Shown here: piece by piece, positions 28,865 to 63,885 of the stretch
How positions within the stretch are numbered: position 1 is the first letter of the stretch
How the letters are laid out: each line of letters starts with the position of its first letter
Assembly: GCF_056746865.1 (NCBI RefSeq)
Contig: NZ_CM163382.1
DNA: 64,000 nucleotides
Reading direction: 5' to 3' (one strand)
Notes under the pieces: generated by a model
The model's input: only the letters and a program-made list of their open reading frames with translations
The model's database searches: none
Told to the model about the DNA's origin: nothing
Position numbers and translations under genes: made by a program

Positions 28865-29452
28865 TTAACTGGTCCAGGTCGCGTCGAACTGTACGCTAAC
28901 GTCGCCGCTCCAGATGCCTTCCGGTAGAGTGCTGTAATCGGTTACTGCGGTGGTACCATTGGTGGTGCCGCTGATGATGGAGAAAGTGAAACCATCCTGT
29001 GCGGTGGTACGATTGCTGGCATTGTAACCGTTAGCCAGTGGGCTAAGGTTGCCGCCCAGTACGCCGTTGGCGGTATCGATCATCACGGTATCGCCAGTTT
29101 TTTCGACTGCCGCGCCGTTATAATCCACGCCCACATTCAGTGTGGAACCTGAGGTATCCAACTGGGTTAAGGTGTTGGTGATAAGACGTGAGGTCAGTTT
29201 AAAGGCGGTAGCCGTTGAGTCACCCTCGATAGCCACGTCAAATAGACCTTTCTGTGAGTTAAAACCTTTAATGCCTTCGGCATACTGGAACGCCAGGCTA
29301 CCGAGTGGCGTCACAACCAGCTTACTGGTGGTGTCTTTTTTGGCTGTTGCTGACCAGGTCGCTACAGCCTGAGCTGTTACGTCAGCAGCCTGCGCCACAC
29401 CTGAACCGGTAAACACCGTTACCAGAGCTATTGCCAGAACCTTTTTTTTCAT
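28865..29452 (-). CDS. ecpA: E. coli common pilus major pilin EcpA (MatB)
   Basis: 195 aa with signal peptide ([22 protein letters not shown]). Confidence 0.92.
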
Positions 29453-29526
29453 TGCTTTTCTTCCCGAGTTGAATTGAGGACGTGATGTCCCTGTGAGTCA
29501 TTTTTTAAAACTAACTTGCCTGGAGT

Positions 29527-30138
<612 letters not shown>

Positions 30139-30519
30139 TTACAGGTACATTCAGTTTCTTTAGTAAATCGGAAGTAAATAAGATACGTAGCACATATCAA
30201 TATAGGTTAAACGAGATTAAGTTTTAATTATTTTCGATTGGGCTTAAATTTATGTTTTTTTCCTGATGAGTGTCAATATGTGAACAGAAAAGGAATTCCA
30301 TGGTTAAGTCAATATTTACAAAAAATGAAAATATTGCTTTTTTGATAAGAAGAAAAAGACATTCAGTTTCATAAGGTTATTGGCAATATAACGTTCAATT
30401 CTTACTTGCATTTTATATTAGCCAGGAACTTTGCCCTGAGGTGTTAGGAATAGTCTTAATGTGTTGTGTAATGGACTAGTAAAAAAACAAGTTTAAATGA
30501 TAAGAAATAGAATATAAAA

Positions 30520-30747
30520 CTATAATGAGTCATAATTAAAGATGATTTGCCAATCAGTAAAGTGTTTTAATGGATTAACATGCCGCACAAAATGGTTATG
30601 GGTGTTCATTCCAATAAGTGATGAAAAATTAAACAGGTGTAAGTACGTCATCTGTCCGGTAAGCCCCCTAAGAGCCAAATTAAGTGAAGTTAAACGAAGA
30701 CTGCCAGTTGTCACAGGAACGATGGCCTCTTTGCCAGGGCACTGCAT
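30520..30747 (-). CDS. hypothetical 75 aa protein (position and length match ykgL of K-12 from memory)
   Basis: ORF only; no strong RBS or domain signal. Confidence 0.3.
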   Translation of the reverse strand: MQCPGKEAIVPVTTGSLRLTSLNLALRGLTGQMTYLHLFNFSSLIGMNTHNHFVRHVNPLKHFTDWQIIFNYDSL

Positions 30748-31153
30748 TCAGTCATCTGTGCGCGTTACTCTAACTGGCACTCGAACGTCGGCGATGGGGT
30801 TACCGGTGGATCAGGCCGTTCCTGTGGCGTAAACGTTTTTATGTCAGTACCAACAGATTTACCACATTTATCATCTTAACCGTTTGAGTGTAAATGCAGG
30901 CTGCGTCGCAAAGGGAGGAAACTGAGTGGCGTGTTCAGTCTAAAAGAGAGTTGATGCCAGCATACAGGGCGCACCTGGTCAACAAGTCAACATTAATATA
31001 ATGGAATATTCGGAGAGAAACGTCAGGCAGTTGACCTTAAATGAACAGGAAGATACATCCCCAGGAAAATTAATGCTGGTGTAATAAATACACCAACATT
31101 AATCCGGTCTGATTATTAATCAGACAAATATCGTTAATTCGTCGAATTTTGAA

Positions 31154-31294
31154 TCAACGTTTTTTCTTACGACCCTGAACGGCCTTAAAACGTGGATTAG
31201 ATTTACAAATCACATATAGCCGTCCTTTTCGCTTCACAATCTGACAGTCTGGATGGCGTTCTTTTGCGGTACGCAGAGAGTTAAGGACTTTCAT
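31154..31294 (-). CDS. ykgO: 50S ribosomal protein L36 paralog (zinc-independent type)
   Basis: 46 aa [46 protein letters not shown] read directly; absent from the ORF track (<60 aa); start overlaps ykgM stop (ATGA). Confidence 0.85.
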
Positions 31295-31557
31295 CATGCC
31301 CCCTTTTTCGTGCTAACAAAACGACCAAAACGTTGGGTGAATCGTGCAACATTTCCTTCTGATGCCACTGTTCTCAGCTTCCCTGTATAGAACGGGTGCG
31401 ATTTAGAAGAGACATCAATTGTCACGTACGGATACGTTACGCCATCCAGCTCAATCTCACGGTCTGTTTTGATAGTCGAGCCGATTTTAAAGTACTCATC
31501 AACACTGGTGTCATGGAACACCACAGTACGATACTCAGGATGGATATTGGGTTTCAT
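31294..31557 (-). CDS. ykgM: 50S ribosomal protein L31 type B
   Basis: 87 aa ([23 protein letters not shown]...); no Cys zinc ribbon, consistent with the zinc-independent paralog. Confidence 0.9.
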
Positions 31558-31568
31558 CATTTTTACCT

Positions 31569-31586
31569 GTTATGTTATAACATAAC
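31569..31586. promoter_or_regulatory. Zur box upstream of ykgM
   Basis: perfect 18 bp palindrome GTTATGTTATAACATAAC immediately upstream of the ykgM start. Confidence 0.7.
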
Positions 31587-31921
31587 CGTAAAGATACATG
31601 CTCATCCGGATCATTTCAACACCCAATCCCTGTGACCATTTGTGGTATGTGGAATTTCCTCAACGGGGAAGTCTGGCATTGTTAACAGCCATTGGCTGAC
31701 GCTCCCATAAACGCCTGGATGAGTGATTGATGATGGTTTCGCTGAGAGTATGGATTTTTCGAGAATGGAGGTTATCTCCACTTTACTGGCCGATGATTTA
31801 TCGCAGTATGATTGATTACCTGACAGCGTGTATTCCTCTCCCACGGATATAATAATTACTTACAAAAAGGGAGAGGATGCATATTTTAAATATCACTGAA
31901 GTGAACAGTTTATTGCCGTTA

Positions 31922-32023
31922 TTAATAGAAATGGAAAAATAAATAGGCGTATTCTACAATTGCGACAAAAACAACGATATTAATCAGTTTATGACTGATT
32001 TGTTGTACTTTATTCTCTTTCAT
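31922..32023 (-). CDS. ykgR: small membrane protein YkgR (33 aa)
   Basis: MKENKVQQISHKLINIVVFVAIVEYAYLFFHFY read from the minus strand; hydrophobic core; not in the ORF track. Confidence 0.6.
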   Translation of the reverse strand: MKENKVQQISHKLINIVVFVAIVEYAYLFFHFY

Positions 32024-32496
32024 TGGTACTTCCTCGCTTTAAAAAAGAGTGCACTTCGTAAGTGCCCTTATATAAATAACGAGTTTGGTCAACCAATTTT
32101 TTGACATGTATCACAAATTTGAATAGATGTATTACATCAACTATCTTTTATTGCCCCAACGTCATTGATATATGTCGCCTGAAGTCAGTTCCGGGAATGA
32201 GTCTGATCTCAAGACAGGCCCAGTCCTGGCGTTGATTAGCGCTGAGGAGCATATCGCATCTCATCATAATGTCGTATCTCCTGGGGTGTTATACAAGATA
32301 TCGTTGTTGGTGACCTGGGAGAGGAATTGAGTTCTATTAAACCGTCAACTATGCCGGATACATACTGGATTACACAGCAGGCACGCCTTATGAGAGAACG
32401 TGCCGCAGTGACGGGTTAATTATCTGAAAGAATTTGCGAGGCTGTATCGGTTACTCATTGGTTTGATAGTTTTACACTCGGGAGAGTAATAGATAT

Positions 32497-33639
32497 TTAA
32501 TCCATTAACGGAAACCAGCCAGTTCCTTTCGATGCCTGAATTTGATCCCATAGTTTATCCGGAATGGTTAATTCAGGAACAAGTTGTGGATTAAGGGTTG
32601 TTTGAATTTCATGGCTTCTACCTGATTCAGCTAAAGTCACCCATTCTGGATTTATCACCAGCCCTTTACCGATCGCAACAAGTGGCAGGCCAGTGGAAAT
32701 TGCTTCTTGAGCCTGAGACGGTGTGCGTATTTTACCTGCAGCGATTACCGGCACTCTGCCTGCAATATGATTTAAAATCAATTCAATAGTTCGGGGGCCA
32801 TTTGGCGACTCAACAGGGTAGCTATCGTTAATACTGACCAGCGAGGTATGTATATACGAAATACCGGATGCAATGAGCCGATCAAGGAGTTTATAAGTAT
32901 CCTCTATCCGCAGCCCCCCTGTTGCAGATTCTTCAGGAGATATTCTGTAACCGATGGCAAAGGGCTTTGTCGCATATTCATAGACTACATTTTTTACTTC
33001 CTGTAATACGGCCAGCGGGAATCGCATACGTCTTTCGAGATCTCCTCCCCATCGGTCATTACGCTGGTTAAATAGAGGGGAGAAGAAATTCTGTAGAAGG
33101 AATCCGTGCGCACCATGAAGTTCAATGCCATCAAAACCTGCTTTAATCGCCCTTTTTGTGACATCTCCGAATGCTCTAATGGTTTCCTGAATTTCGTTTT
33201 CAGTCATTTCCCTGCTTTGTACCACTCTCTTCATAAAGTCACCAGATTTTACGCTTGATGCGCTGGCACTAATAACATCGTTATTTGGTACAAGCTCCGG
33301 GATGGCTTTATTACCGGCGTGGAAAATCTGCAAAATAGCCGGAGCACCGCCACTTTTGGCTGCCGCTGCTAACTTTTCAAGGCTGTTAATGAAACGGTCG
33401 TCATACGCGGCAAATTCATGAGTAAACCCAATGCCGCTTGGCGTGACATAGGTACATCCTGTTATTACTAAACCAACATTTTGTGAGCGACGTTTATAAA
33501 ATTCGAGTTCTTGCTCAGAGATGGTTCCATCAGGATTCGCTGACCAGGTCGTCATAGGAGCCATAACGATACGATTACGTAGCTTTATTTTTTCTGTCAG
33601 CATAAAAGGAGAAAACAATGATGGGTGTTTATTTGTCAT
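32497..33639 (-). CDS. NADH:flavin oxidoreductase, Old Yellow Enzyme family
   Basis: 380 aa; OYE-like TIM-barrel signature (RIVMAPM, LQIFHAGN, GFDGIELHGAHGFLL); GAGG RBS. Confidence 0.85.
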   Translation of the reverse strand: MTNKHPSLFSPFMLTEKIKLRNRIVMAPMTTWSANPDGTISEQELEFYKRRSQNVGLVITGCTYVTPSGIGFTHEFAAYDDRFINSLEKLAAAAKSGGAPAILQIFHAGNKAIPELVPNNDVISASASSVKSGDFMKRVVQSREMTENEIQETIRAFGDVTKRAIKAGFDGIELHGAHGFLLQNFFSPLFNQRNDRWGGDLERRMRFPLAVLQEVKNVVYEYATKPFAIGYRISPEESATGGLRIEDTYKLLDRLIASGISYIHTSLVSINDSYPVESPNGPRTIELILNHIAGRVPVIAAGKIRTPSQAQEAISTGLPLVAIGKGLVINPEWVTLAESGRSHEIQTTLNPQLVPELTIPDKLWDQIQASKGTGWFPLMD

Positions 33640-33883
33640 AACAATACCTCAAATGTTTATCTGATTTTGATGCGTATGTTTTAACTGGTTAGTTGTTGCC
33701 AGCTTTGGAACCAAGGTTTATGGCTTTATTTATAATTCCTTCAAAGGGTTTCTAATAATCTTAATAATTGAGTTGCTGCTTTTTTGTTTCTTTAATGAAA
33801 TTTCTTTTTGAGTAATTTTATTATTGTTGTGTAGTCAATAAAGGATAAATGTCAGGGAGATAAGGAATCTCCCTGTAAGATTA

Positions 33884-34804
33884 TTACAAATGTGTTTTAT
33901 AAAAAGGAATTAATTTATCGAGTGCCTGTTTCACAGGTTCTGGCTTATCATACAGGTCGTAATGTGAATAACCTTCAACCACGACCAGCTCTTTATGTTT
34001 TGAGGCAGCGCGGCCAATAATTTCGCAGCCGTCACGGTAGGCACCAAATGCGCCCACTCTATCGCCCACCACAACCATTATTGGTTGAGTTAACAGGACT
34101 TCTGCAAGATGAAATGCATCCCAACCCACGGCAACAGTCTGATGTGAGAATAGCGAACGATTTACCCCATTAGGTGCACAGCCTCGTGGCGAACGATAAT
34201 ATTCTGTGGCTTCAAAAAGGTCTATTTCTGTTAATCCCGCTTCAAGAGCTGCATCCGGAGAAGAGGGGAGTAAATCATCTACGCGAAGTTTTGCGCCGTT
34301 AGCTTCGTCTGTTCTTTGTTGCGCCATTGCTTCGAGTGCTCCGATAGGATTAAACGCTGTAAATCCCTCACGCATAAGACGCCCGTAGTTTGCACCCGTG
34401 ACAGTACCAATAGCTTTAATTCGACGTTCTGTCATTGCGGCATTAATGGCATATCCACCTCCACCACAAATACCCAGTACACCAATACGCCCGGCATCAA
34501 CGTAAGGTAAGGTGGTAAGGTAATCAACGACAATGCTGAAGTCTTTTACTCGCATTGTTGGATCTTCCAGATAACGCGGTTCTCCACCGCTGCTTCCCTG
34601 AAAACTGGCATCAAAAGCAATGACGATAAAGCCAGCTTTTGCCAGGGCGGCACCATACACACTACCCGATGTTTGTTCTTTGCAGCTTCCAATTGGATGG
34701 GCGCTGATAATGGCAGGATACTTTTTTTCACTATTAAAATCGTCAGGGAAATAGATATCAGCAGCTATATCCCAGTAAGTATGTTTTATCGAAACAGTTT
34801 TCAT
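33884..34804 (-). CDS. alpha/beta-fold hydrolase, dienelactone-hydrolase-like (Cys nucleophile elbow GICGGGG)
   Basis: 306 aa; no signal peptide; paralog of the 12713-13849 product. Confidence 0.82.
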   Translation of the reverse strand: MKTVSIKHTYWDIAADIYFPDDFNSEKKYPAIISAHPIGSCKEQTSGSVYGAALAKAGFIVIAFDASFQGSSGGEPRYLEDPTMRVKDFSIVVDYLTTLPYVDAGRIGVLGICGGGGYAINAAMTERRIKAIGTVTGANYGRLMREGFTAFNPIGALEAMAQQRTDEANGAKLRVDDLLPSSPDAALEAGLTEIDLFEATEYYRSPRGCAPNGVNRSLFSHQTVAVGWDAFHLAEVLLTQPIMVVVGDRVGAFGAYRDGCEIIGRAASKHKELVVVEGYSHYDLYDKPEPVKQALDKLIPFYKTHL

Positions 34805-47175: not shown

Positions 47176-47769
47176 TCAATATTCAGTTTTTAACGTTGAA
47201 CTGGATTCATTACTGCGTTGTTTAAGAATTTCCCGCGCCGAATCTGCCATTATCATGACAGCACCTGCCAGCATCAGAGTATCTTTCAATACCAGGCGAC
47301 CAGCACCGGATAAATAAGGGAAACCATGATGAGCGTCACCCAATGCGGGTACCCATGCCTCCGGGGTGGTGATTAAAAATGAGAGTGTTACCAACGGTGT
47401 GGTAAATGCCATCAGCCCTCCCAATAAACCTAACCAGCGATTGACAGGATTAGCCAAAACCAGCAGAGCAATAATCACCTCCACGACGCCAAGACCGTTG
47501 GAAAAACCATAGGTATTATTGGCCGATTGCCATGCCCTTGCTTCTGGTTTGTATTCGCCTTCGTGAGTCAGATACTGTTTATAGTCTTCCGGGTGTTCAT
47601 AAAAGAACGACATTAGTGGACTGTTTGCGACGAATGGTGTAATGCTGTCTGCCTCGTAAGGGACAAACTTTAATAACCCAATCCACATAAAAACAATCGC
47701 AATACTCAGACGAATCAATGTCAGGCCAATTTTATCTCCCCGACTTAACAGGTGAAGGTATTTTTCCAT
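47176..47769 (-). CDS. rclC: reactive chlorine resistance inner membrane protein RclC
   Basis: 197 aa hydrophobic protein; first of three collinear genes divergent from rclR. Confidence 0.82.
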   Translation of the reverse strand: MEKYLHLLSRGDKIGLTLIRLSIAIVFMWIGLLKFVPYEADSITPFVANSPLMSFFYEHPEDYKQYLTHEGEYKPEARAWQSANNTYGFSNGLGVVEVIIALLVLANPVNRWLGLLGGLMAFTTPLVTLSFLITTPEAWVPALGDAHHGFPYLSGAGRLVLKDTLMLAGAVMIMADSAREILKQRSNESSSTLKTEY

Positions 47770-47780
47770 TGTGAACATCC

Positions 47781-48017
47781 TTATTTATACAATACTGCTG
47801 TTGCGGTTGAATTATTATCAATTCGCATCGATGTGACTTTCCAGGATGAAGCATTATATTTTCTGGCCATATCAGCAATGGCATCCTCCAGAACTGTCGG
47901 TGATGCTGATACTGACGAGACGCTGATATGTTTCAGAATTATTTTATCATCTGCATTGGTGGAAAATGCCATAACGCCAGATAATAGTGTTGCAAATAAA
48001 ACAGATTTTTTAAACAT
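47781..48017 (-). CDS. rclB: reactive chlorine resistance periplasmic protein RclB (DUF1471)
   Basis: 78 aa with signal peptide (MFKKSVLFATLLSGVMAFSTNA). Confidence 0.8.
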   Translation of the reverse strand: MFKKSVLFATLLSGVMAFSTNADDKIILKHISVSSVSASPTVLEDAIADMARKYNASSWKVTSMRIDNNSTATAVLYK

Positions 48018-48125
48018 ATAAAATACCATCAATGAAGTGATTAAGAAGTTATAGAGTAACAGAGAATTAATAAGATTCTTTTCTCTGAGACGCCAGAATA
48101 TTTGTTCTGGCGTCTGATTTTGAGT

Positions 48126-49451
48126 TTATTTGACTAATGAAAATAGATCATTGAGTGATTCGCTCATCGACGGATGAGTAAATATCTGATCGCGTAATAT
48201 GCTATAAGGCAGCCCGGCATCCATCACCATTTTCACTATATTAATCATCTCGTGGGAGTCAACACACAGCAGTGATGCCCCTAATATACGTTGGGTTTTA
48301 TTATCAACAATCGCTTTTAATACCCCACGGGTATCGTTCATCACTCTGGCGCGCGGAATTGCAGCTACAGGCAATGTCACCACCTGAATATCAGCACCAC
48401 TCTCTCTGGCTTGTTCTTCTGTCATACCAACCCTGGACAGGGGCGGTGTCATAAATACGGAATAAGGCACATTTTTCCGATCATCAGTACTACGTTTGCC
48501 TTCACCCAGTAACTCATCACGTACAATGCGGTAATCATCCAGTGAAATATAAGTAAATTGCAGCCCGCCGGTAACATCTCCCATCGCCCAAATATTGTCT
48601 GCGGTGGTATGTAATCGCTTGTCAACGACAATTGCCCCGCGCTCGTTTACTGCGATACCGGCATTTTCTGGATGTAACGAAGCGGTAGCCGGTTGACGAC
48701 CGGAAGCTATTAACAGTGCATCCACCGCCAGTTGGGCGTGCTCGCTATGCACTTGCACTTGATTTTCATGGTGACTGATTCGCTCCACATGGGCATTGAG
48801 GATAATATCGACGCCCTGATCGCGTAAAATCGTCGCGATATTATCAGCAATATCCCGATCTTCCCGAGGCAAAAACAGCGAAGCTGCTTCTAAAATGGTT
48901 ACCTTGCTGCCAAAATTAGCGAACATAGAGGCGAACTCAACGCCAATATATCCGCCGCCTAAAATACCTAAATGCCCAGGCAATTCTTTTAGATTAAGTA
49001 ATCCGGTGCTGTCATATACTCCTGGCGTGGTGGTAATTCCAGGAATTGGCGGAACCACGGTTTGTGCACCGGTATTAATAAAAATTTTCTCGCCATGAAT
49101 TTCCAGATTTCCCTCAGGCCGATGAACACGCAGGCTATGATTATTGATAAACTCCGCCTGGCCGTCGATCACGTCGATATTGGGCATATCCGCAAGATTA
49201 TGAAAATTCTTATTACGTAAAAAATTAACCACTTCATTTTTACGCTGTATGGCACGGACAAAATCTGTGTGCTGCTGTGCGTCATGAACCAATGTTTTGG
49301 TTGGGATACAGCCGATATTAATACAGGTCCCGCCATACATTGCATTTGATTGTTCGATGAGAGCCACACGCCAACCTGCTTTTGCCAGCGTGACGGCTAA
49401 TGTTTTTCCAGCCTTGCCAAAACCAATAATAACTGCCTGATATTTATTCAT
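48126..49451 (-). CDS. rclA: pyridine nucleotide-disulfide oxidoreductase RclA
   Basis: 441 aa; FAD-binding GFGKAG; redox-active CINIGC motif. Confidence 0.88.
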   Translation of the reverse strand: MNKYQAVIIGFGKAGKTLAVTLAKAGWRVALIEQSNAMYGGTCINIGCIPTKTLVHDAQQHTDFVRAIQRKNEVVNFLRNKNFHNLADMPNIDVIDGQAEFINNHSLRVHRPEGNLEIHGEKIFINTGAQTVVPPIPGITTTPGVYDSTGLLNLKELPGHLGILGGGYIGVEFASMFANFGSKVTILEAASLFLPREDRDIADNIATILRDQGVDIILNAHVERISHHENQVQVHSEHAQLAVDALLIASGRQPATASLHPENAGIAVNERGAIVVDKRLHTTADNIWAMGDVTGGLQFTYISLDDYRIVRDELLGEGKRSTDDRKNVPYSVFMTPPLSRVGMTEEQARESGADIQVVTLPVAAIPRARVMNDTRGVLKAIVDNKTQRILGASLLCVDSHEMINIVKMVMDAGLPYSILRDQIFTHPSMSESLNDLFSLVK

Positions 49452-53217: not shown

Positions 53218-53905
53218 TCGGAGCGAATTTTTGAATAACGTTGCTCAGGCACTGGGTCGCCCGTTGCGACTTGAACCGCAAGCAGAAGATGCGCCGCTTA
53301 ACAACTATGCTAACGAGCGGCTTACCCAACTTAACCAACAGCAGCGCTGTGACGCGTTTATTCAGTTTGCCAGCGATGTTATGTTGACGCGCTGTGAGCT
53401 GACCAGCGAGGCGAAGGCGGCAGAAGCTGCAATACGTCTGTGTAAAGAGCTGGGAGATCAGTCGGTCGTGATTAGCGGTGACACGAGGCTGGAGGAATTG
53501 GGGATTAGCGAACGTTTGCAGCAGGAATGCAATGCCGTTGTTTGGGATCCGGCGAAAGGTGCCGAGAATATCTCGCAGGCAGAGCAGGCTAAAGTGGGTG
53601 TCGTGTATGCTGAATATGGTTTAACCGAATCGGGAGGCGTGGTTCTTTTTTCCGCCGCCGAGCGCGGGCGTTCATTGAGCCTGCTCCCGGAATCTTCTCT
53701 TTTTATCCTGCGTAAAAGCACAATCCTGCCGCGTATAGCGCAACTTGCAGAAAAATTGCATCAGAAAGCGCAGGCCGGTGAACGAATGCCGTCATGTATT
53801 AACATCATCAGTGGTCCCAGTTCAACGGCGGACATTGAGCTTATCAAAGTCGTCGGGGTTCATGGTCCGGTGAAAGCGGTGTATCTGATTATTGAGGATT
53901 GCTGA
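53210..53905 (+). CDS. ykgG: LutC-like protein YkgG
   Basis: 231 aa from ATG 53210, overlapping the ykgF stop; third gene of the ykgEFG operon. Confidence 0.82.
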   Translation: MDNRSEFLNNVAQALGRPLRLEPQAEDAPLNNYANERLTQLNQQQRCDAFIQFASDVMLTRCELTSEAKAAEAAIRLCKELGDQSVVISGDTRLEELGISERLQQECNAVVWDPAKGAENISQAEQAKVGVVYAEYGLTESGGVVLFSAAERGRSLSLLPESSLFILRKSTILPRIAQLAEKLHQKAQAGERMPSCINIISGPSSTADIELIKVVGVHGPVKAVYLIIEDC

Positions 53906-54147
53906 GAGTGATATGAAGTCTGGACATAAACCTGAAGTCGGCATACGAGGTTGTGAATAGCGTTAAGGACAACCTGACTTAACCCCGTTCCGTCATGGTT
54001 ATGCTGCTCTTCTGTAAATATCCTGGCATTAGTAATGCCAGGATATTTACAGTGAAAAAGACAGGAATCCATTCCTGAAGACGGGCTCCCTTCCCGGTCA
54101 TTGTCACTATAGTTTTATACAGGCACTCTCTGTCAGAATGCTGTTTA

Positions 54148-54816
54148 TTACTGCCCAGAGTTTTGTTGGTATTCATCTACCATTTTTTTGACAAGGCAAA
54201 ACATTACAGAAATTACAATGCTTATAAAAAATCCCAGAGCCAGGCAAATGGCAGCAGGGTATTTATTTTTTATTTCTGGTGAGCTTATAGTTACACAGCC
54301 ATCACCGTTCGGATACAATGACCAGTTCCTGGTCAGGTATATCATTTTTGTATAAAGCTCACTGTTAATTGCTGAAGGTGTTTGTATCTCATCGAGAACT
54401 TGCCTGCCATTATGATATTCTGACGCATACCATTTGATAATAGACGCCTGCACGCGAGATATTTCCGCTTCAGCAGTTGGTAAATCTCTCTTATCTCCTG
54501 ACCATTCCAGCTTTATTTCTCTGTTCTTGACATCTGGGCTGGTCTGAAAAAATGTAGTAATTCGCTGAATAACATCTTCAGTCATTGTGGTCTGACAGGC
54601 AAAGTTATTATTGCTATCACAGCTAACAAGTATGCCTGGTGTTGTCTGGTTTATTTTTAGGCTGTAACTCACTTTTATATTATCTTTATTGATATACAGA
54701 AACAACAGCACCATTGCCATACAGATAGTTATAATAAAAAGGATAATACGAATCTTTTTCTTCAGATAAAATAAAATCTCAATCAGATCGATATCCTGTT
54801 TGATTTGTTCACTCAT
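54148..54816 (-). CDS. ykgH: inner membrane protein YkgH
   Basis: 222 aa, single N-terminal TM helix; position between ykgG and betA. Confidence 0.75.
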   Translation of the reverse strand: MSEQIKQDIDLIEILFYLKKKIRIILFIITICMAMVLLFLYINKDNIKVSYSLKINQTTPGILVSCDSNNNFACQTTMTEDVIQRITTFFQTSPDVKNREIKLEWSGDKRDLPTAEAEISRVQASIIKWYASEYHNGRQVLDEIQTPSAINSELYTKMIYLTRNWSLYPNGDGCVTISSPEIKNKYPAAICLALGFFISIVISVMFCLVKKMVDEYQQNSGQ

Positions 54817-55026
54817 AATATATCCAGAAAATAAAATCTGCCGCAGATAAATGAATTAATAGGCTGTATCAGGAGTGTTCGGGTTAAATATCAGCAAAAA
54901 ACCAGCATCATGAATACTGGATATGAAGCATGAGAGTTACCTCAGTGTTTTATATAAGGATTCGGTCCTCATAGTAGAACGGTAACTCTCAATCTGATAG
55001 GTTCCTGAGTCAGTTCACATCACGAC

Positions 55027-56697
55027 TCATTTTTTCGCTCTCACCGGCCTCCCATTTGCCACATAATATCCCGCCGTGCTCCTCGGCAACGCATCCTTCC
55101 CGCGAATCATATCCGCCATTTTCTCGCCAATCATAATAGTCGTGGCGTTCAAATTGCCGGTGATAATCTGCGGCATAATTGACGCATCCACCACGCGCAG
55201 GCCTTCCAGCCCGTGTACGCGGCCTTCGCCGTCAACCACTGCCATCTCGTCATAACCCATTTTGCAGGTACCGCACGGGTGGAAGGCGGTTTCGGCGTGG
55301 TTACGCACGAACTCATCGAGCTGCTCATCCGTCTGGCATTCGACACCGGGGCTGATTTCGCGGCCACGATACTGATCCAGCGCCGGTTGATGCATGATCT
55401 CGCGGGTGATGCGAATTGCGTCGCGGAACTCCTGCCAGTCCTGCTCGTGCGACATGTAGTTAAACAGAATCGCTGGATGCTGGTGCGGGTCGCGGGATTT
55501 AATCCGCACATGCCCACGGCTTGGCGAGCGCATCGATCCGACGTGGCACTGGAAGCCGTGCTCTTTCACTGCGTTCGAGCCGTTATAGTTAATCGCCACT
55601 GGCAGGAAATGGTACTGAATATTCGGCCACGCAAATTCCTCACGGCTGCGAATAAATCCGCCTGCTTCAAAGTGGTTGCTGGCACCAACGCCGGTGCCGC
55701 CAAACAGCCACTCCGCACCGATTTTCGGCTGATTCCACCACTGCAGGGCAGGGTAGAGGGAAACCGGTTCTTTGCACTCATATTGCAGGTACATCTCCAG
55801 GTGATCCTGAAGATTTTCGCCGACGCCGGGTAAATCATGCACCAGCGGAATATCAAACTCCGCCAGCAGTTCAGCGCTACCCACGCCGGAACGTTGCAGG
55901 ATCTGCGGAGAGGCGATCGCACCTGCACATAACAGCACCTCTTTATTCGCTGTCGCGCGGGTTGGAATGGTGCTGTCGCCTTCCAGCCACTCGACGCCCA
56001 CCGCGCGTTTGCCGTCAAAAATGATGTGATCGGTCATGGCGTGAGTACGAATGGTCAGGTTAGGGCGCGATTTGGCCTGATCGAGATAGCCACGCGCGGT
56101 GCTGGCGCGACGGCCATGCGGCGTGACGGTGCGATCCATCGGGCCAAAACCTTCCTGCTGATAGCCGTTGAGATCGTCCGTGCGCGGGTAGCCTGCCTGC
56201 ACGCCCGCTTCAATCATCGCTTCAAACAGCGGATTGACGCCGGGTTTGGAGGTAGTGACGCTCACCGGGCCATCGCCACCGTGGTAGTCGTTCTCGCCTA
56301 CATCGCGAGTCTCGGCCTTGCGGTAGTAGGGCAGGCAGTCGAGATAACTCCAGTTCTCCAGACCGGGTTCTTGCGCCCAGTTATCGAGATCCAGCGCGTT
56401 ACCACGGATGTAACACATGCCGTTGATCAGTGATGACCCGCCAAGCCCCTTACCGCGTCCGCACTCCATGCGACGGTTGTTCATAAACGGTTCCGGTTCC
56501 GTCTCATAGGCCCAGTTATAGCGTTTACCCTGTAGCGGGAATGCCAGCGCGGCGGGCATCTGGGTGCGGAAGTCAAAGCGATAGTCCGGGCCGCCTGCTT
56601 CAAGCAGCAGCACGGTTGTGTTCGGATCTTCAGTCAGACGGGTAGCGAGAACGTTGCCGGCTGAGCCGGCACCAATAATGATGTAGTCAAATTGCAA
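55027..56697 (-). CDS. betA: choline dehydrogenase BetA
   Basis: 556 aa from TTG start with GGAGG RBS; GMC oxidoreductase FAD motif [11 protein letters not shown]. Confidence 0.94.
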
Positions 56698-58912: not shown

Positions 58913-60946
58913 ATGACAGACCTTTCACACAGCAGGGAAAAGGACAAAATCAATCCGGTGGTGTTTTACACTTCCGCCGGACTGATTTTGTTGTTTTCCC
59001 TGACAACGATCCTGTTTCGCGACTTCTCGGCCCTGTGGATTGGACGCACGCTGGACTGGGTCTCTAAAACCTTCGGTTGGTACTATCTGCTGGCGGCAAC
59101 GCTCTATATTGTCTTTGTGGTCTGTATCGCTTGTTCGCGTTTTGGTTCGGTGAAGCTCGGGCCAGAACAATCCAAACCGGAATTCAGTCTGCTGAGTTGG
59201 GCGGCGATGCTGTTTGCTGCCGGGATCGGTATCGACCTGATGTTCTTCTCCGTAGCCGAACCGGTAACGCAGTATATGCAGCCGCCGGAAGGCGCGGGTC
59301 AGACGATTGAGGCTGCGCGTCAGGCGATGGTCTGGACGCTGTTTCACTACGGCTTAACCGGCTGGTCGATGTATGCGCTGATGGGCATGGCGCTCGGATA
59401 CTTTAGCTATCGTTATAATTTGCCGCTCACCATCCGCTCGGCGCTGTACCCGATCTTCGGTAAACGGATTAACGGGCCGATTGGTCATTCAGTGGATATT
59501 GCAGCGGTAATCGGCACCATCTTCGGTATTGCCACTACGCTCGGTATCGGTGTGGTGCAGCTTAACTATGGCTTGAGCGTACTGTTTGATATTCCCGATT
59601 CAATGGCGGCGAAAGCGGCACTGATCGCCTTGTCGGTGATCATCGCCACGATCTCTGTCACCTCCGGTGTCGATAAGGGCATTCGTGTGTTATCGGAACT
59701 TAACGTTGCGCTGGCGCTGGGATTGATCCTTTTCGTGCTGTTTATGGGCGACACCTCGTTCCTGCTTAATGCGCTGGTGCTGAACGTTGGCGACTATGTG
59801 AATCGCTTTATGGGCATGACGCTCAACAGTTTTGCCTTCGACCGTCCGGTTGAGTGGATGAATAACTGGACGCTCTTCTTCTGGGCATGGTGGGTGGCAT
59901 GGTCGCCGTTTGTCGGCCTGTTTCTGGCGCGTATCTCGCGCGGGCGTACCATTCGCCAGTTCGTGCTGGGCACGTTGATTATTCCGTTTACCTTCACGCT
60001 GTTATGGCTCTCGGTGTTCGGCAATAGCGCGCTGTATGAAATCATCCACGGCGGCGCGGCATTTGCCGAGGAAGCGATGGTCCATCCGGAGCGCGGCTTC
60101 TACAGCCTGCTGGCGCAGTATCCGGCGTTTACCTTTAGCGCCTCCGTCGCCACCATTACTGGCCTGCTGTTTTATGTGACCTCGGCGGACTCCGGGGCGC
60201 TGGTGCTGGGGAATTTCACCTCGCAGCTTAAAGATATCAACAGCGACGCCCCCGGCTGGCTGCGCGTCTTCTGGTCGGTGGCGATTGGCCTGCTAACGCT
60301 CGGCATGCTGATGACCAACGGGATATCCGCGCTGCAAAACACCACGGTAATCATGGGGCTGCCGTTCAGCTTTGTGATTTTCTTCGTGATGGCGGGGTTG
60401 TATAAATCTCTGAAGGTAGAAGATTACCGCCGTGAAAGTGCCAACCGTGATACCGCGCCGCGACCGCTGGGGCTTCAGGATCGCCTGAGCTGGAAAAAAC
60501 GTCTCTCGCGCCTGATGAATTATCCGGGCACGCGTTACACTAAACAGATGATGGAGACGGTCTGTTACCCGGCAATGGAAGAAGTGGCGCAGGAGCTGCG
60601 GTTGCGCGGCGCGTACGTGGAGCTAAAAAGCCTGCCGCCGGAAGAGGGACAACAGTTGGGGCATCTGGATTTGTTGGTGCATATGGGCGAAGAGCAAAAC
60701 TTTGTCTATCAGATTTGGCCGCAGCAATATTCGGTGCCGGGCTTTACCTACCGCGCACGTAGCGGTAAATCGACCTACTACCGGCTGGAAACCTTCCTGT
60801 TAGAAGGCAGCCAGGGCAACGACCTGATGGACTACAGCAAAGAGCAGGTGATCACCGATATTCTTGACCAGTACGAGCGGCATCTTAACTTTATCCATCT
60901 CCATCGTGAAGCGCCGGGCCATAGCGTGATGTTCCCGGACGCGTGA
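58913..60946 (+). CDS. betT: choline transporter BetT (BCCT family)
   Basis: 677 aa polytopic transporter, recognised BetT sequence. Confidence 0.95.
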   Translation: MTDLSHSREKDKINPVVFYTSAGLILLFSLTTILFRDFSALWIGRTLDWVSKTFGWYYLLAATLYIVFVVCIACSRFGSVKLGPEQSKPEFSLLSWAAMLFAAGIGIDLMFFSVAEPVTQYMQPPEGAGQTIEAARQAMVWTLFHYGLTGWSMYALMGMALGYFSYRYNLPLTIRSALYPIFGKRINGPIGHSVDIAAVIGTIFGIATTLGIGVVQLNYGLSVLFDIPDSMAAKAALIALSVIIATISVTSGVDKGIRVLSELNVALALGLILFVLFMGDTSFLLNALVLNVGDYVNRFMGMTLNSFAFDRPVEWMNNWTLFFWAWWVAWSPFVGLFLARISRGRTIRQFVLGTLIIPFTFTLLWLSVFGNSALYEIIHGGAAFAEEAMVHPERGFYSLLAQYPAFTFSASVATITGLLFYVTSADSGALVLGNFTSQLKDINSDAPGWLRVFWSVAIGLLTLGMLMTNGISALQNTTVIMGLPFSFVIFFVMAGLYKSLKVEDYRRESANRDTAPRPLGLQDRLSWKKRLSRLMNYPGTRYTKQMMETVCYPAMEEVAQELRLRGAYVELKSLPPEEGQQLGHLDLLVHMGEEQNFVYQIWPQQYSVPGFTYRARSGKSTYYRLETFLLEGSQGNDLMDYSKEQVITDILDQYERHLNFIHLHREAPGHSVMFPDA

Positions 60947-60958
60947 TTGTTATTGCAT

Positions 60959-60996
60959 AAAACCGCGCCATGTCTGCATATGGCGCGGTTTCTCTT
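60959..60996 (+). terminator. terminator hairpin after betT
   Basis: 12 bp stem aaaccgcgccat/atggcgcggttt followed by tctctt. Confidence 0.55.
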
Positions 60997-61822
60997 ACCT
61001 CTTGATACGTTATATCTGTGTACAGTTAAGCCCTTAGTATCGATTGATGATTGCCAGGCAACAGATAATAAAAAAGAAAAGAACTATTGAAGCCCAAAAC
61101 CTACGCTTGGACTGTTGTGAATGTTCAATAAGCTTAGTCTTATTTAATGTAAATATTGGTGCTAATTTGAAATGACGCTTTATTCATGGGAAACGCGTAG
61201 CGCAAATCAACTAAAATCAATGTAACTGTTTGTTGTTTAAGGTTTAATTGTCTGTGTCTGATATTTTATTGATTGTTTTAAATATTGTTTTTATTGTCAT
61301 TGTTATAATGTTGGCTATCTATTGCTGAATGGATTCAGCCTTAAAAGGCAGGTTGTTAAGGGATAGGCATAGAGTAATGACGTGTATGCATAACCAACAT
61401 CTTTACTCATTATGTCATTGAATGTTGACGCTATGTGTTTATGAGGTTGAGGTATTTTCAGTTGATCTGGATTGTTAAATTCATATAATGCGCCTTTACT
61501 CATGAATGGGCGTCAATACGTAGTGGGAAATTATAAATATTGAAATAGTCCAACTACTTCTTTATTACCAAAAATGAGTATCTGAATTTTAATATTGCAT
61601 TCTTGCGTGATTATCTCCTGAGTTTGACTTGTGATTACCTTTTTAAGGTATTTAGCGTAACTGTTTTTGAGCGAGCATCAGAGGTAAAGATAATCTTTTT
61701 GATAGTAATGTGGGATGTTATGCGTATGGCATCGCTGATGTTTATGGTTACCCCTTATGTGTGCTCAGGAATCCACAGGTAATCACTCATACTGAACAGC
61801 GATAAAAGATAAAGGTGTGTTC

Positions 61823-62911
61823 ATGAATTCATGTGATTTTCGTGTTTTTCTGCAAGAGTTCGGTACAACGGTTCATTTGTCATTGCCTGGTAGCGTATCC
61901 GAGAAAGAACGACTGCTACTCAAGCTGCTGATGCAGGGAATGTCTGTAACAGAAATATCACAGTACAGAAATCGCAGTGCAAAGACCATTTCACATCAAA
62001 AGAAACAGCTCTTTGAGAAACTGGGGATTCAGAGCGATATTACTTTCTGGCGGGATATTTTCTTTCAGTACAATCCGGAGATCATATCCGCCACGGGTAA
62101 TAATAGTCACAAATATATTAATGATAATCACTATCACCATATCGTCACGCCTGAAGCCATCAGTCTGGCGTTGGAAAACCATGAGTTTAAACCGTGGATC
62201 CAACCGGTTTTCTGCGCGCAGACTGGGGTACTGACGGGCTGTGAGGTGCTTGTCCGCTGGGAACATCCACAAACGGGAATTATCCCACCGGATCAGTTTA
62301 TTCCTCTGGCGGAGTCATCTGGTCTTATCGTCATAATGACTCGCCAGTTGATGAAACAGACTGCGGATATTCTGATGCCGGTAAAACATTTGCTGCCGGA
62401 TAATTTCCATATTGGCATCAACGTCTCGGCGGGTTGTTTTTTGGCCGCGGGATTTGAAAAAGAATGCCTGAACCTGGTCAAGAAATTAGGAAACGATAAA
62501 ATCAAACTGGTTCTCGAGCTAACGGAACGTAACCCTATTCCGGTAACGCCAGAAGCCAGAGCGATATTTGACAGCCTTCATCAGCACAACATTACCTTTG
62601 CGCTGGATGACTTTGGTACGGGTTATGCGACCTATCGTTACTTGCAGGCGTTCCCGGTCGATTTTATTAAGATCGATAAGTCATTTGTGCAAATGGCGAG
62701 CGTGGACGAAATATCCGGTCATATTGTGGACAATATTGTCGAACTGGCGCGTAAGCCTGGTCTGAGTATCGTGGCGGAAGGGGTAGAAACCCAGGAGCAG
62801 GCGGATTTAATGATCGGCAAAGGCGTTCACTTTTTGCAGGGCTATTTGTACTCTCCGCCAGTACCGGGTAATAAATTTATCTCTGAATGGGTAATGAAAG
62901 CAGGTGGTTGA
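61823..62911 (+). CDS. pdeL: c-di-GMP phosphodiesterase PdeL (LuxR HTH plus EAL domain)
   Basis: 362 aa from MNSCDF...; N-terminal LuxR-type HTH; EAL-domain motifs (ELTE, DDFGTGYA). Confidence 0.9.
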   Translation: MNSCDFRVFLQEFGTTVHLSLPGSVSEKERLLLKLLMQGMSVTEISQYRNRSAKTISHQKKQLFEKLGIQSDITFWRDIFFQYNPEIISATGNNSHKYINDNHYHHIVTPEAISLALENHEFKPWIQPVFCAQTGVLTGCEVLVRWEHPQTGIIPPDQFIPLAESSGLIVIMTRQLMKQTADILMPVKHLLPDNFHIGINVSAGCFLAAGFEKECLNLVKKLGNDKIKLVLELTERNPIPVTPEARAIFDSLHQHNITFALDDFGTGYATYRYLQAFPVDFIKIDKSFVQMASVDEISGHIVDNIVELARKPGLSIVAEGVETQEQADLMIGKGVHFLQGYLYSPPVPGNKFISEWVMKAGG

Positions 62912-62952
62912 TGTAAACCGCTATTCACAGCGCATCGGGAGGTTGGCAGCGA

Positions 62953-63885
62953 TTAATTCTCCCGATGCAGTAAATCCTGATAGATCCCCGTTAATATGCC
63001 ATTTGGCGAAAATTGTTTTTTAATCCACTGCGTCACCTGACCGGTGGCAGAGTGCTGGGTCGCCAGTAACATGCGTGAATCCTGGCGCGGATTATGGATT
63101 TGGCGGGTAACCAGCAGGGATTGCTCCATCGCCTCGCGAACCATGTAATCCGGCAAAAAACCAATTCCTTCACCTAAAATCTGGCACTGACATTTGGTGT
63201 TGAAATCTGGCACCAGAATCGACTCCTGCCCATGCAGCAACCAGCCCACTTTTTTATTAATCGTATGCGCGGTGTCTTCCACCATGATATTGGGATAGAG
63301 ACGCAGCTGGCTTTCGGCGATGGGTTCCGGCACAAAGGCTAACGGGTGATCCGGGGCGATAGCAAAAGCCCAGCGAATCGCGCCAATCTCCGTGTAATCA
63401 ATGCCGCCACCGTCCAGCAGCGTGTCGGGTGCGCCGATAGCAATATTCGCCTGATTATTAATAATCGCATCCCAGACGCCGTTATACACTTCGGTCGTCA
63501 CGGTAATCTGGCAGGTTGGAAACTGCTTTTTCAGTACCTGTAATAAGCGTGCGGTGTGTTTGGGCGTATAAAGCAGTTGGTTAATACAAATGCGCACCCG
63601 TGCTTCTATACCCTGCGAAATAGTATCGATGCTGCGTTTGATGGCGTGAAAATCATTCAGCAGGTCGGTAGCTTTGCGGAAAAAATAACGCCCGGACTCC
63701 GTTAACTCAATGCTGCGGGTACTGCGAGTGAACAGCACCACATCCAGCCCTGTTTCCATTCGCTTGATGGTGTAGCTAATGGCGGAAGTGGTTAAACCCA
63801 ACTCTTCTGCGGCTTTACTGAAGCTGCCAAAACGCGCAGCGGTAGTAAATGCCAACAGATTCTCTTCGGTAAAAATTGAGTTCAT
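62953..63885 (-). CDS. yahB: LysR-family transcriptional regulator YahB
   Basis: 310 aa; HTH FSKAAEELGLTTSAISYTIKRME; convergent with pdeL. Confidence 0.85.
   Translation of the reverse strand: MNSIFTEENLLAFTTAARFGSFSKAAEELGLTTSAISYTIKRMETGLDVVLFTRSTRSIELTESGRYFFRKATDLLNDFHAIKRSIDTISQGIEARVRICINQLLYTPKHTARLLQVLKKQFPTCQITVTTEVYNGVWDAIINNQANIAIGAPDTLLDGGGIDYTEIGAIRWAFAIAPDHPLAFVPEPIAESQLRLYPNIMVEDTAHTINKKVGWLLHGQESILVPDFNTKCQCQILGEGIGFLPDYMVREAMEQSLLVTRQIHNPRQDSRMLLATQHSATGQVTQWIKKQFSPNGILTGIYQDLLHREN

Follow-up and report, generated by a model that had tools for sequence, protein, structure and literature searches.

The window, that is, the whole stretch of 64,000 nucleotides that was analysed, carries betT at 58913-60946, followed on the same strand by pdeL, the ATG of which lies at 61823, and then by yahB on the minus strand. 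The two genes betT and pdeL are separated by a spacer of 876 bp (60947-61822), or 826 bp once the betT terminator is subtracted, which agrees with the interval of about 825 bp described earlier in a reading of the sequence alone. The terminator that this sequence-only reading had placed behind betT is confirmed by the properties of its hairpin: the inverted repeat is 100% complementary, the predicted folding energy is -22.5 kcal/mol (z = -5.3), and the same hairpin is common to O157-type genomes. The description of the interval as AT-rich, with many short A/T tracts, also proves correct. The G+C content of the spacer is 0.348, compared with 0.497 for the 64-kb window, and only 0.6% of the 876-bp segments within the 64 kb are equally AT-rich; A/T tracts of at least 4 nucleotides occur at 18.3 per kb in the spacer and at 10.7 per kb elsewhere. 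The plus strand of the spacer is T-rich (36% T). Other parts of the window in which G+C falls below 0.40 over 876 bp are located at approximately 29350-34300, 47360-48570 and 53860-55220, with a minimum of 0.326 at about 29771. A 1-kb query across the interval is 100% identical to the genome of Escherichia coli CFSAN061770 and finds matches in 5,220 of the 5,426 complete E. coli genomes. The features discussed below are collected in Table 1.

Table 1. Positions of the features in the betT-pdeL spacer and of the adjoining pdeL gene, numbered along the window
Feature	Position	Strand	Description and basis
betT intrinsic terminator	60960..60997	+	14-bp G+C-rich hairpin at 60960-60991, then U-rich tail UUUCUCUU
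CIB, Cra-independent PdeL box	61124..61147		palindrome AATAAG-N6-CTTATT, AATAAGCTTAGTCTTATT, at 61127-61144; oligos 4991/4997 and legend of Fig. S1, bioRxiv 10.1101/2021.10.01.462762
yahV allele, 24 codons, GTG start	61254..61328	+	MSDILLIVLNIVFIVIVIMLAIYC, hydrophobic; syntenic with K-12 'protein YahV'
Cra (FruR) box	61324..61339		GCTGAATGGATTCAGC; overlaps the yahV stop codon; oligo 4695 and CB-minus mutagenesis oligos
Position of CDB, Cra-dependent PdeL box	61340..61352		CTTAAAAGGCAGG in the window, CTTAATGAGTGGG in K-12; oligos 4695 and 5028
Conserved block, 34 bp	61398..61431		CATCTTTACTCATTATGTCATTGAATGTTGACGC; between CDB and the -35 element
Predicted pdeL sigma-70 promoter	61462..61489	+	TTGATC-16-TATAAT; 10/12 matches; sole strong match in the spacer
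Predicted pdeL 5' leader, ~327 nt	61496..61822	+	Shine-Dalgarno AAGGTG at 61812-61817
Conserved imperfect inverted repeat, candidate leader hairpin	61663..61772	+	arms at 61667-61687 and 61748-61768
pdeL (yahA) CDS	61823..62911	+	HTH-EAL transcription factor and c-di-GMP phosphodiesterase

The position of the interval between betT and pdeL, on the pdeL strand, together with the sites described below, indicates that the interval very probably controls pdeL in cis, in an E. coli strain with an allele unlike that of K-12. The region is already known as the pdeL control region and is in this respect ordinary, being neither a new RNA nor a gene-free mystery. The K-12 pdeL (yahA) regulatory region has reportedly been treated by Reinders et al. 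in 2016 and by Shimada et al. in 2005, besides the experimental study on which the present mapping is based. According to that study, the pdeL region of K-12 is silenced by H-NS and co-activated by Cra and PdeL (bioRxiv 10.1101/2021.10.01.462762). Two PdeL sites are described in it, the distal palindrome CIB and the proximal CDB, which PdeL can bind only when Cra occupies the adjacent box. The study also reports several sites for H-NS, one of them overlapping CIB, and an hns mutant is strongly derepressed. Cra plus PdeL recruit RNA polymerase; the reporter fusions contained the whole spacer, and the sites were required for expression (bioRxiv 10.1101/2021.10.01.462762). The K-12 sites were placed on the window by means of the oligos given in Table S4 of the same preprint. 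For the window allele, what is demonstrable of H-NS silencing and of activation by Cra and PdeL is the AT-richness (G+C 0.35), the binding data being those of K-12.

The mapped sites are preserved to different degrees. The CIB palindrome has its sole match within the 64 kb at this position, where 0.08 would be expected by chance; its half-sites are the same in the window and in K-12 and are conserved in Escherichia sp. E1V33 and SCPM-O-B-8794 (SCPM below), with one base of the CIB spacer differing from K-12. A perfect match to the Cra box GCTGAATGGATTCAG lies upstream of the promoter, and this box is invariant in the window, K-12, E1V33, SCPM and the DNA upstream of ehaA in O157, except that K-12 and O157 have T as the final base. 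The main text of a Cra ChIP-exo paper (PMC5888115) does not mention yahA/pdeL. The place of CDB next to the Cra box is conserved, but 4 of its 13 bases are unlike K-12, and it is the least conserved mapped site across the lineages. Since the binding data all come from K-12, these four differences suggest that PdeL autoregulation may differ quantitatively in the window strain. The 34-bp block between CDB and the -35 element is nearly invariant among the window, K-12, E1V33 and SCPM; no factor is assigned to it in the pdeL literature examined.

Promoter prediction had been suggested in the sequence-only reading, together with the possibility that the interval holds a long regulatory leader. A promoter and terminator scan of 60800-62000 returned three promoter-like sites, compared with 4.1 expected by chance, and outside support exists only for the strong sigma-70 match at 61462. 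The same two hexamers are given as the yahA promoter, flagged for H-NS, by Shimada et al. in their binding map of the RNA polymerase holoenzyme (PMC3946193), where promoter hexamers are best-match predictions within an experimentally bound spacer. The site is also located inside the RNA polymerase recruitment fragment 4695-4283, which corresponds to 61323-61501 of the window, and its 33-bp core is identical in 13/13 E. coli loci of the window type, apart from L013. The position of this promoter would put the transcription start at about 61496 and make the leader about 327 nt long. It is thus likely, as far as the sequence can tell, that pdeL is transcribed from this point into an mRNA with a long leader under purifying selection. 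The second promoter-like site, TTGAGC-16-GATAAT at 61667-61694, could, if used, shorten the leader; E1V33 and SCPM do not preserve its -10 element. The proposal of a long regulatory leader is therefore well supported by the published control region, by a promoter approximately 330 bases upstream of the gene, and by a leader that is 3-4 times more conserved than neutral sequence.

The last of these values comes from the conservation analysis, likewise suggested in the sequence-only reading. In comparison with a K-12-type genome, dS amounts to 0.085 in betT and 0.10 in pdeL. The betT-proximal part of the interval (60997-61460) diverges by 11.0% from the K-12 type, which is about the neutral rate, whereas the promoter and leader (61461-61822) diverge by 2.8% and are 3-4 times more conserved than neutral or synonymous sites. 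Within the leader, E. coli genomes show hardly any variation at positions 61540-61700. Of 3784 records, 3779 have a promoter and leader with 95% or more identity to the window. The distal half falls, among complete genomes, into identity classes of at least 99% (n = 613), 95-99% (n = 1,139), 90-95% (n = 400) and 80-90% (n = 1,648). Genomes of the NCTC122/M19 type are mosaics with a breakpoint at about 61300, within yahV. One further locus (NZ_CP074749.1, compared over 58913-63885) combines diverged flanks, with dS values of 0.26 in betT and 0.21 in pdeL, with a spacer that is only 1.9% different and a yahV that is identical. The genealogy of the spacer is consequently uncoupled from that of its flanks, a sign of recombination or of transfer of the spacer by itself.

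Insertion sequences interrupt the region at several points. In one natural isolate, IS1 (IS1A) is inserted inside CIB at 61136-61144, and an IS3-family element is present in the leader of another locus, at 61731-61736. At a third locus, an IS1 junction is located at 61429, just upstream of the promoter, and everything upstream of it, including the Cra box, CIB and betT, is lost. One half of the spacer is interrupted or truncated in approximately 100-140 of about 3,800 genomes. Decay is also observed in neighbouring genes: pdeL is truncated by IS1 at one locus, yahB carries an internal stop at another, and both yahB and yahC are frameshifted in O157:H7.

The spacer had been described as gene-free, which is wrong because it contains yahV: an intact allele of a gene that is both annotated and detected in K-12. 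YahV (b4730) is a small membrane protein of 24 aa, and its detection in K-12 was achieved by chromosomal SPA epitope tagging (VanOrsdel et al. 2018, PMC6001520). In the window, an in-frame TTG at 61248 precedes the GTG start. The predicted protein matches K-12 YahV at 17 of 24 residues and differs at the other 7; at the nucleotide level, 8 nonsynonymous and 0 synonymous changes separate the two alleles, so that dN is 0.16, compared with values of at most 0.005 in neighbouring genes. The reading frame is uninterrupted in all 9 E. coli loci that were compared. In a simulation of ORF survival under 8 random substitutions, a yahV-like frame remains open with a chance of 40-55%, and for this reason its retention does not argue for selection. 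Neither purifying selection nor presence in relatives was found: apart from the high dN, the frame is broken in E1V33 and SCPM through loss of the start and the appearance of stops, and the region is absent in E. albertii and E. whittamii. Accordingly, yahV is most plausibly a young, fast-evolving, E. coli-specific ORF within upstream regulatory DNA and not a conserved gene. The mean Kyte-Doolittle value is 2.7 for window YahV and K-12 YahV alike, and T-rich strands tend to encode hydrophobic sequences of this kind.

The annotation of yahV varies with the allele. The window allele bears no annotation in the identical strain CFSAN061770, and its exact protein sequence is absent from a collection of 15 billion proteins in which the K-12 allele is present; an NCBIfam scan of both alleles returned no family. 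In NCBI annotation, the K-12 allele is called 'protein YahV' and the mosaic alleles 'hypothetical protein', and the pipeline leaves the window-type allele uncalled. A published account confines yahV to phylogroups A, B1 and C (PMC9976479). This restriction is probably an artefact of sequence divergence combined with annotation practice, rather than a true absence.

Beyond the K-12 and window types, the organization upstream of pdeL is variable. Full-length PdeL orthologues are found in Escherichia only. Escherichia-type pdeL fragments are also present on a 385-bp contig labelled 'Stappia sp. BW2' and on a MAG contig labelled 'Collinsella sp.', with 99% and 84% protein identity, respectively, the latter in an autotransporter-pdeL arrangement; both are most likely contamination. 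E1V33 and SCPM have no bet genes, and in these strains ykgF/ykgG-like LUD-domain genes directly precede an AT-rich spacer that is homologous to that of the window but far more diverged. This spacer includes a hairpin homologous to the 'betT terminator'; conservation in it is concentrated in CIB and the Cra box, in the block at 61398-61431, and in the promoter and the final ~100 nt of the leader. In E. albertii, E. whittamii and a contaminated MAG contig, the order is autotransporter gene, about 140 bp and pdeL, and the AT-rich spacer is missing. Among the 5,426 complete E. coli genomes, 1,402 (26%) contain an allele with ehaA and 3,796 are of the window type. The former is exemplified by O157:H7 (NZ_CP038300.1, 4383300-4390450), in which betT is followed by 573 bp, ehaA, 141 bp and pdeL, and homology with the window picks up again only 14 nt before the pdeL ATG. 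The leader was also considered as a remnant of ehaA coding sequence, a possibility that was rejected when tblastn of O157 EhaA against the spacer gave nothing significant. A literature search for a connection between ehaA and pdeL returned only noise.

The existence of the ehaA allele raises the question of whether the spacer is mostly functionless filler, left by a rearrangement between betT and pdeL through loss or gain of ehaA, with an AT-richness that is incidental. Such an origin would agree with the presence of ehaA between the same Cra box and promoter and pdeL in about a quarter of the complete genomes, with the roughly 140 bp that separate the autotransporter gene from pdeL in E. albertii and E. 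whittamii, and with the near-neutral divergence of the betT-proximal half between haplotype classes. It is nevertheless quite improbable, considering the constraint on the promoter and leader relative to synonymous sites, the invariance of CIB and the Cra box even in deeply diverged lineages, and the K-12 experiments in which the sites were needed for expression (bioRxiv 10.1101/2021.10.01.462762). It is even harder to maintain that the spacer encodes an independent small regulatory RNA, as had also been suggested from the sequence. A short abortive or terminated transcript starting at the 61462-61489 promoter would fit this idea, but the sole strong promoter is that of pdeL, and the scan of 60800-62000 returned no intrinsic terminator-like site. 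An Rfam scan with permissive filters, covering both strands of 60500-62300, gave no match at E <= 10, and the folding of the whole leader is no better than that of shuffled sequences (z = -0.6). In the four-lineage consensus fold, 1 of 73 pairs is compensatory and the covariation term is -0.69 kcal/mol, values that come from an underpowered test, since no more-diverged leader alleles were gathered: a distant blastn search with the SCPM-type leader against the 5,426 complete E. coli genomes gave full-length matches that were all of the ordinary type, at about 79% identity. Taken together, these results leave the small RNA, which is very improbable, unsupported. Additional protein coding is scarcely credible. 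The largest ORFs of the spacer are one of 62 aa, starting with ATG on the minus strand (61315-61503), and one of 59 aa, starting with TTG on the plus strand (61603-61782); a leader peptide could also run from an ATG at 61708, 61720 or 61726 to 61782. The former slightly modifies the earlier statement that no ORF of at least 60 aa with a credible start is present: a 62-aa frame with an ATG does exist, yet it has no Shine-Dalgarno sequence, is unannotated and contains several stops in the two sister lineages E1V33 and SCPM, so that the statement is correct in substance. None of these frames is interrupted in the 9 E. coli loci that were compared, and the frame and stop position of the leader ORF are retained in E1V33 and SCPM. 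However, every substitution within the leader ORF (the 59-aa frame and the internal ATG frames) is nonsynonymous and synonymous sites are unchanged, a pattern that indicates constraint at the nucleotide rather than at the protein level. No record examined annotates any of the candidates, and the frames of 62 and 59 aa, which match no NCBIfam model, were rejected as genes on these grounds.

A different type of function would be exerted by the leader after initiation, as a structured cis-acting RNA in which the candidate hairpin at 61663-61772 controls the elongation, stability or translation of pdeL. In four lineages, folding to minimum energy yields the outer helix of this inverted repeat (18 bp), with z values from -1.6 to -5.6; the arms are nearly invariant and the interior is variable, and the leader as a whole is strongly constrained. 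The binding of RNA polymerase upstream without entry into pdeL would also be consistent with such control. Against it stand the single compensatory pair among the 73 predicted and one pair that is broken in E1V33, the location of the hairpin away from the ribosome-binding site, and the lack of an Rfam match. Moreover, the minus strand makes the same helix with similar z-scores, and because both strands form it, the repeat may be a DNA-level feature or due to chance. A literature search for a connection of Rho or of a UTR to pdeL returned only noise. Control by a leader hairpin is thus unlikely, and the inverted repeat, being suggestive only, is considered a lead and not a finding. An extended version of this proposal is similarly doubtful. 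In it, the leader, through the hairpin and the invariant segment 61540-61700, would act as a checkpoint for elongation, stability or translation, and lineages would in addition differ in the threshold of the bistable c-di-GMP switch of PdeL. If true, the checkpoint would account for RNA polymerase at the region without entry into pdeL. The connection of the Cra box and promoter to either pdeL or ehaA, together with the 11%-diverged haplotypes of the PdeL boxes and yahV, suggests that lineages may differ in switch threshold.

The preferred interpretation therefore remains that of a cis-regulatory region of pdeL, and the K-12 literature allows its operation on the window allele to be outlined. 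Starting from betT, the order of elements is the terminator, CIB over an H-NS site, yahV, the Cra box with the position of CDB beside it, the conserved block, the predicted sigma-70 promoter, the predicted leader of about 327 nt and the pdeL ribosome-binding site. H-NS would coat the AT-rich DNA and thereby silence the promoter, and Cra on its box would assist the binding of PdeL alongside. At low c-di-GMP, tetramers of PdeL are expected to occupy the two PdeL boxes, to displace H-NS and to bring in RNA polymerase. The likely outcome of this anti-silencing by PdeL and Cra is a switch-like positive autoregulation. According to the K-12 literature, the switch-like autoregulation of PdeL decides whether cells are motile or sessile and how sensitive they are to phage N4, and the spacer would be the site at which the c-di-GMP switch of PdeL is computed. 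What is new here is minor: all the mapped sites now have coordinates in an allele other than that of K-12; the distal half, CDB and yahV included, is mosaic and diverges at about the neutral rate; and there are further the evidence for yahV as a young, unconstrained ORF, the Cra/promoter module in common with the ehaA allele, the IS insertions of natural isolates, and the inverted repeat in the leader. For annotation, the spacer deserves the label 'pdeL regulatory region', with a diverged and currently unannotated yahV allele. The distal haplotypes around the PdeL boxes and the ehaA allele also constitute natural variants with which the tuning of the switch could be probed.

Compared with the K-12 pdeL region, the window allele has the same position between betT and pdeL, a length within 2 bp, the same CIB half-sites, the same 33-bp promoter core and a leader that is 97% identical. 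It differs in the 460 bp nearest to betT, which are 11% diverged, and in the 4 of 13 bases of CDB, and the K-12 experiments were performed on the other allele. The two yahV alleles share their position, length, GTG start, a stop codon that overlaps the Cra box, and strong hydrophobicity. The product has been detected for the K-12 allele, whereas the window allele is a predicted ORF in which all nucleotide changes are nonsynonymous.

The betT-ehaA region of O157:H7 has in common with the window the betT terminator, the Cra box, a promoter of the form TATTTTnAGTTGATyTG ... CATATAATGCGC, a similar spacing between box and promoter, and an AT-rich composition (32% G+C). In contrast, neither CIB nor yahV is present there, and the leader bears no relation to that of the window. 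The module there precedes ehaA, which encodes the autotransporter adhesin EhaA, and pdeL follows 141 bp further on, behind a hairpin.

Among E. coli control regions, those of bgl and flhDC are silenced by H-NS and can be activated by insertion sequences. As in these two cases, a long stretch of AT-rich DNA upstream of pdeL is bound by H-NS, silencing is relieved by a specific anti-silencer, and natural isolates carry insertions of IS1 or IS3. It differs from both in the identity of the anti-silencer, which for pdeL is the product of the gene itself together with Cra.
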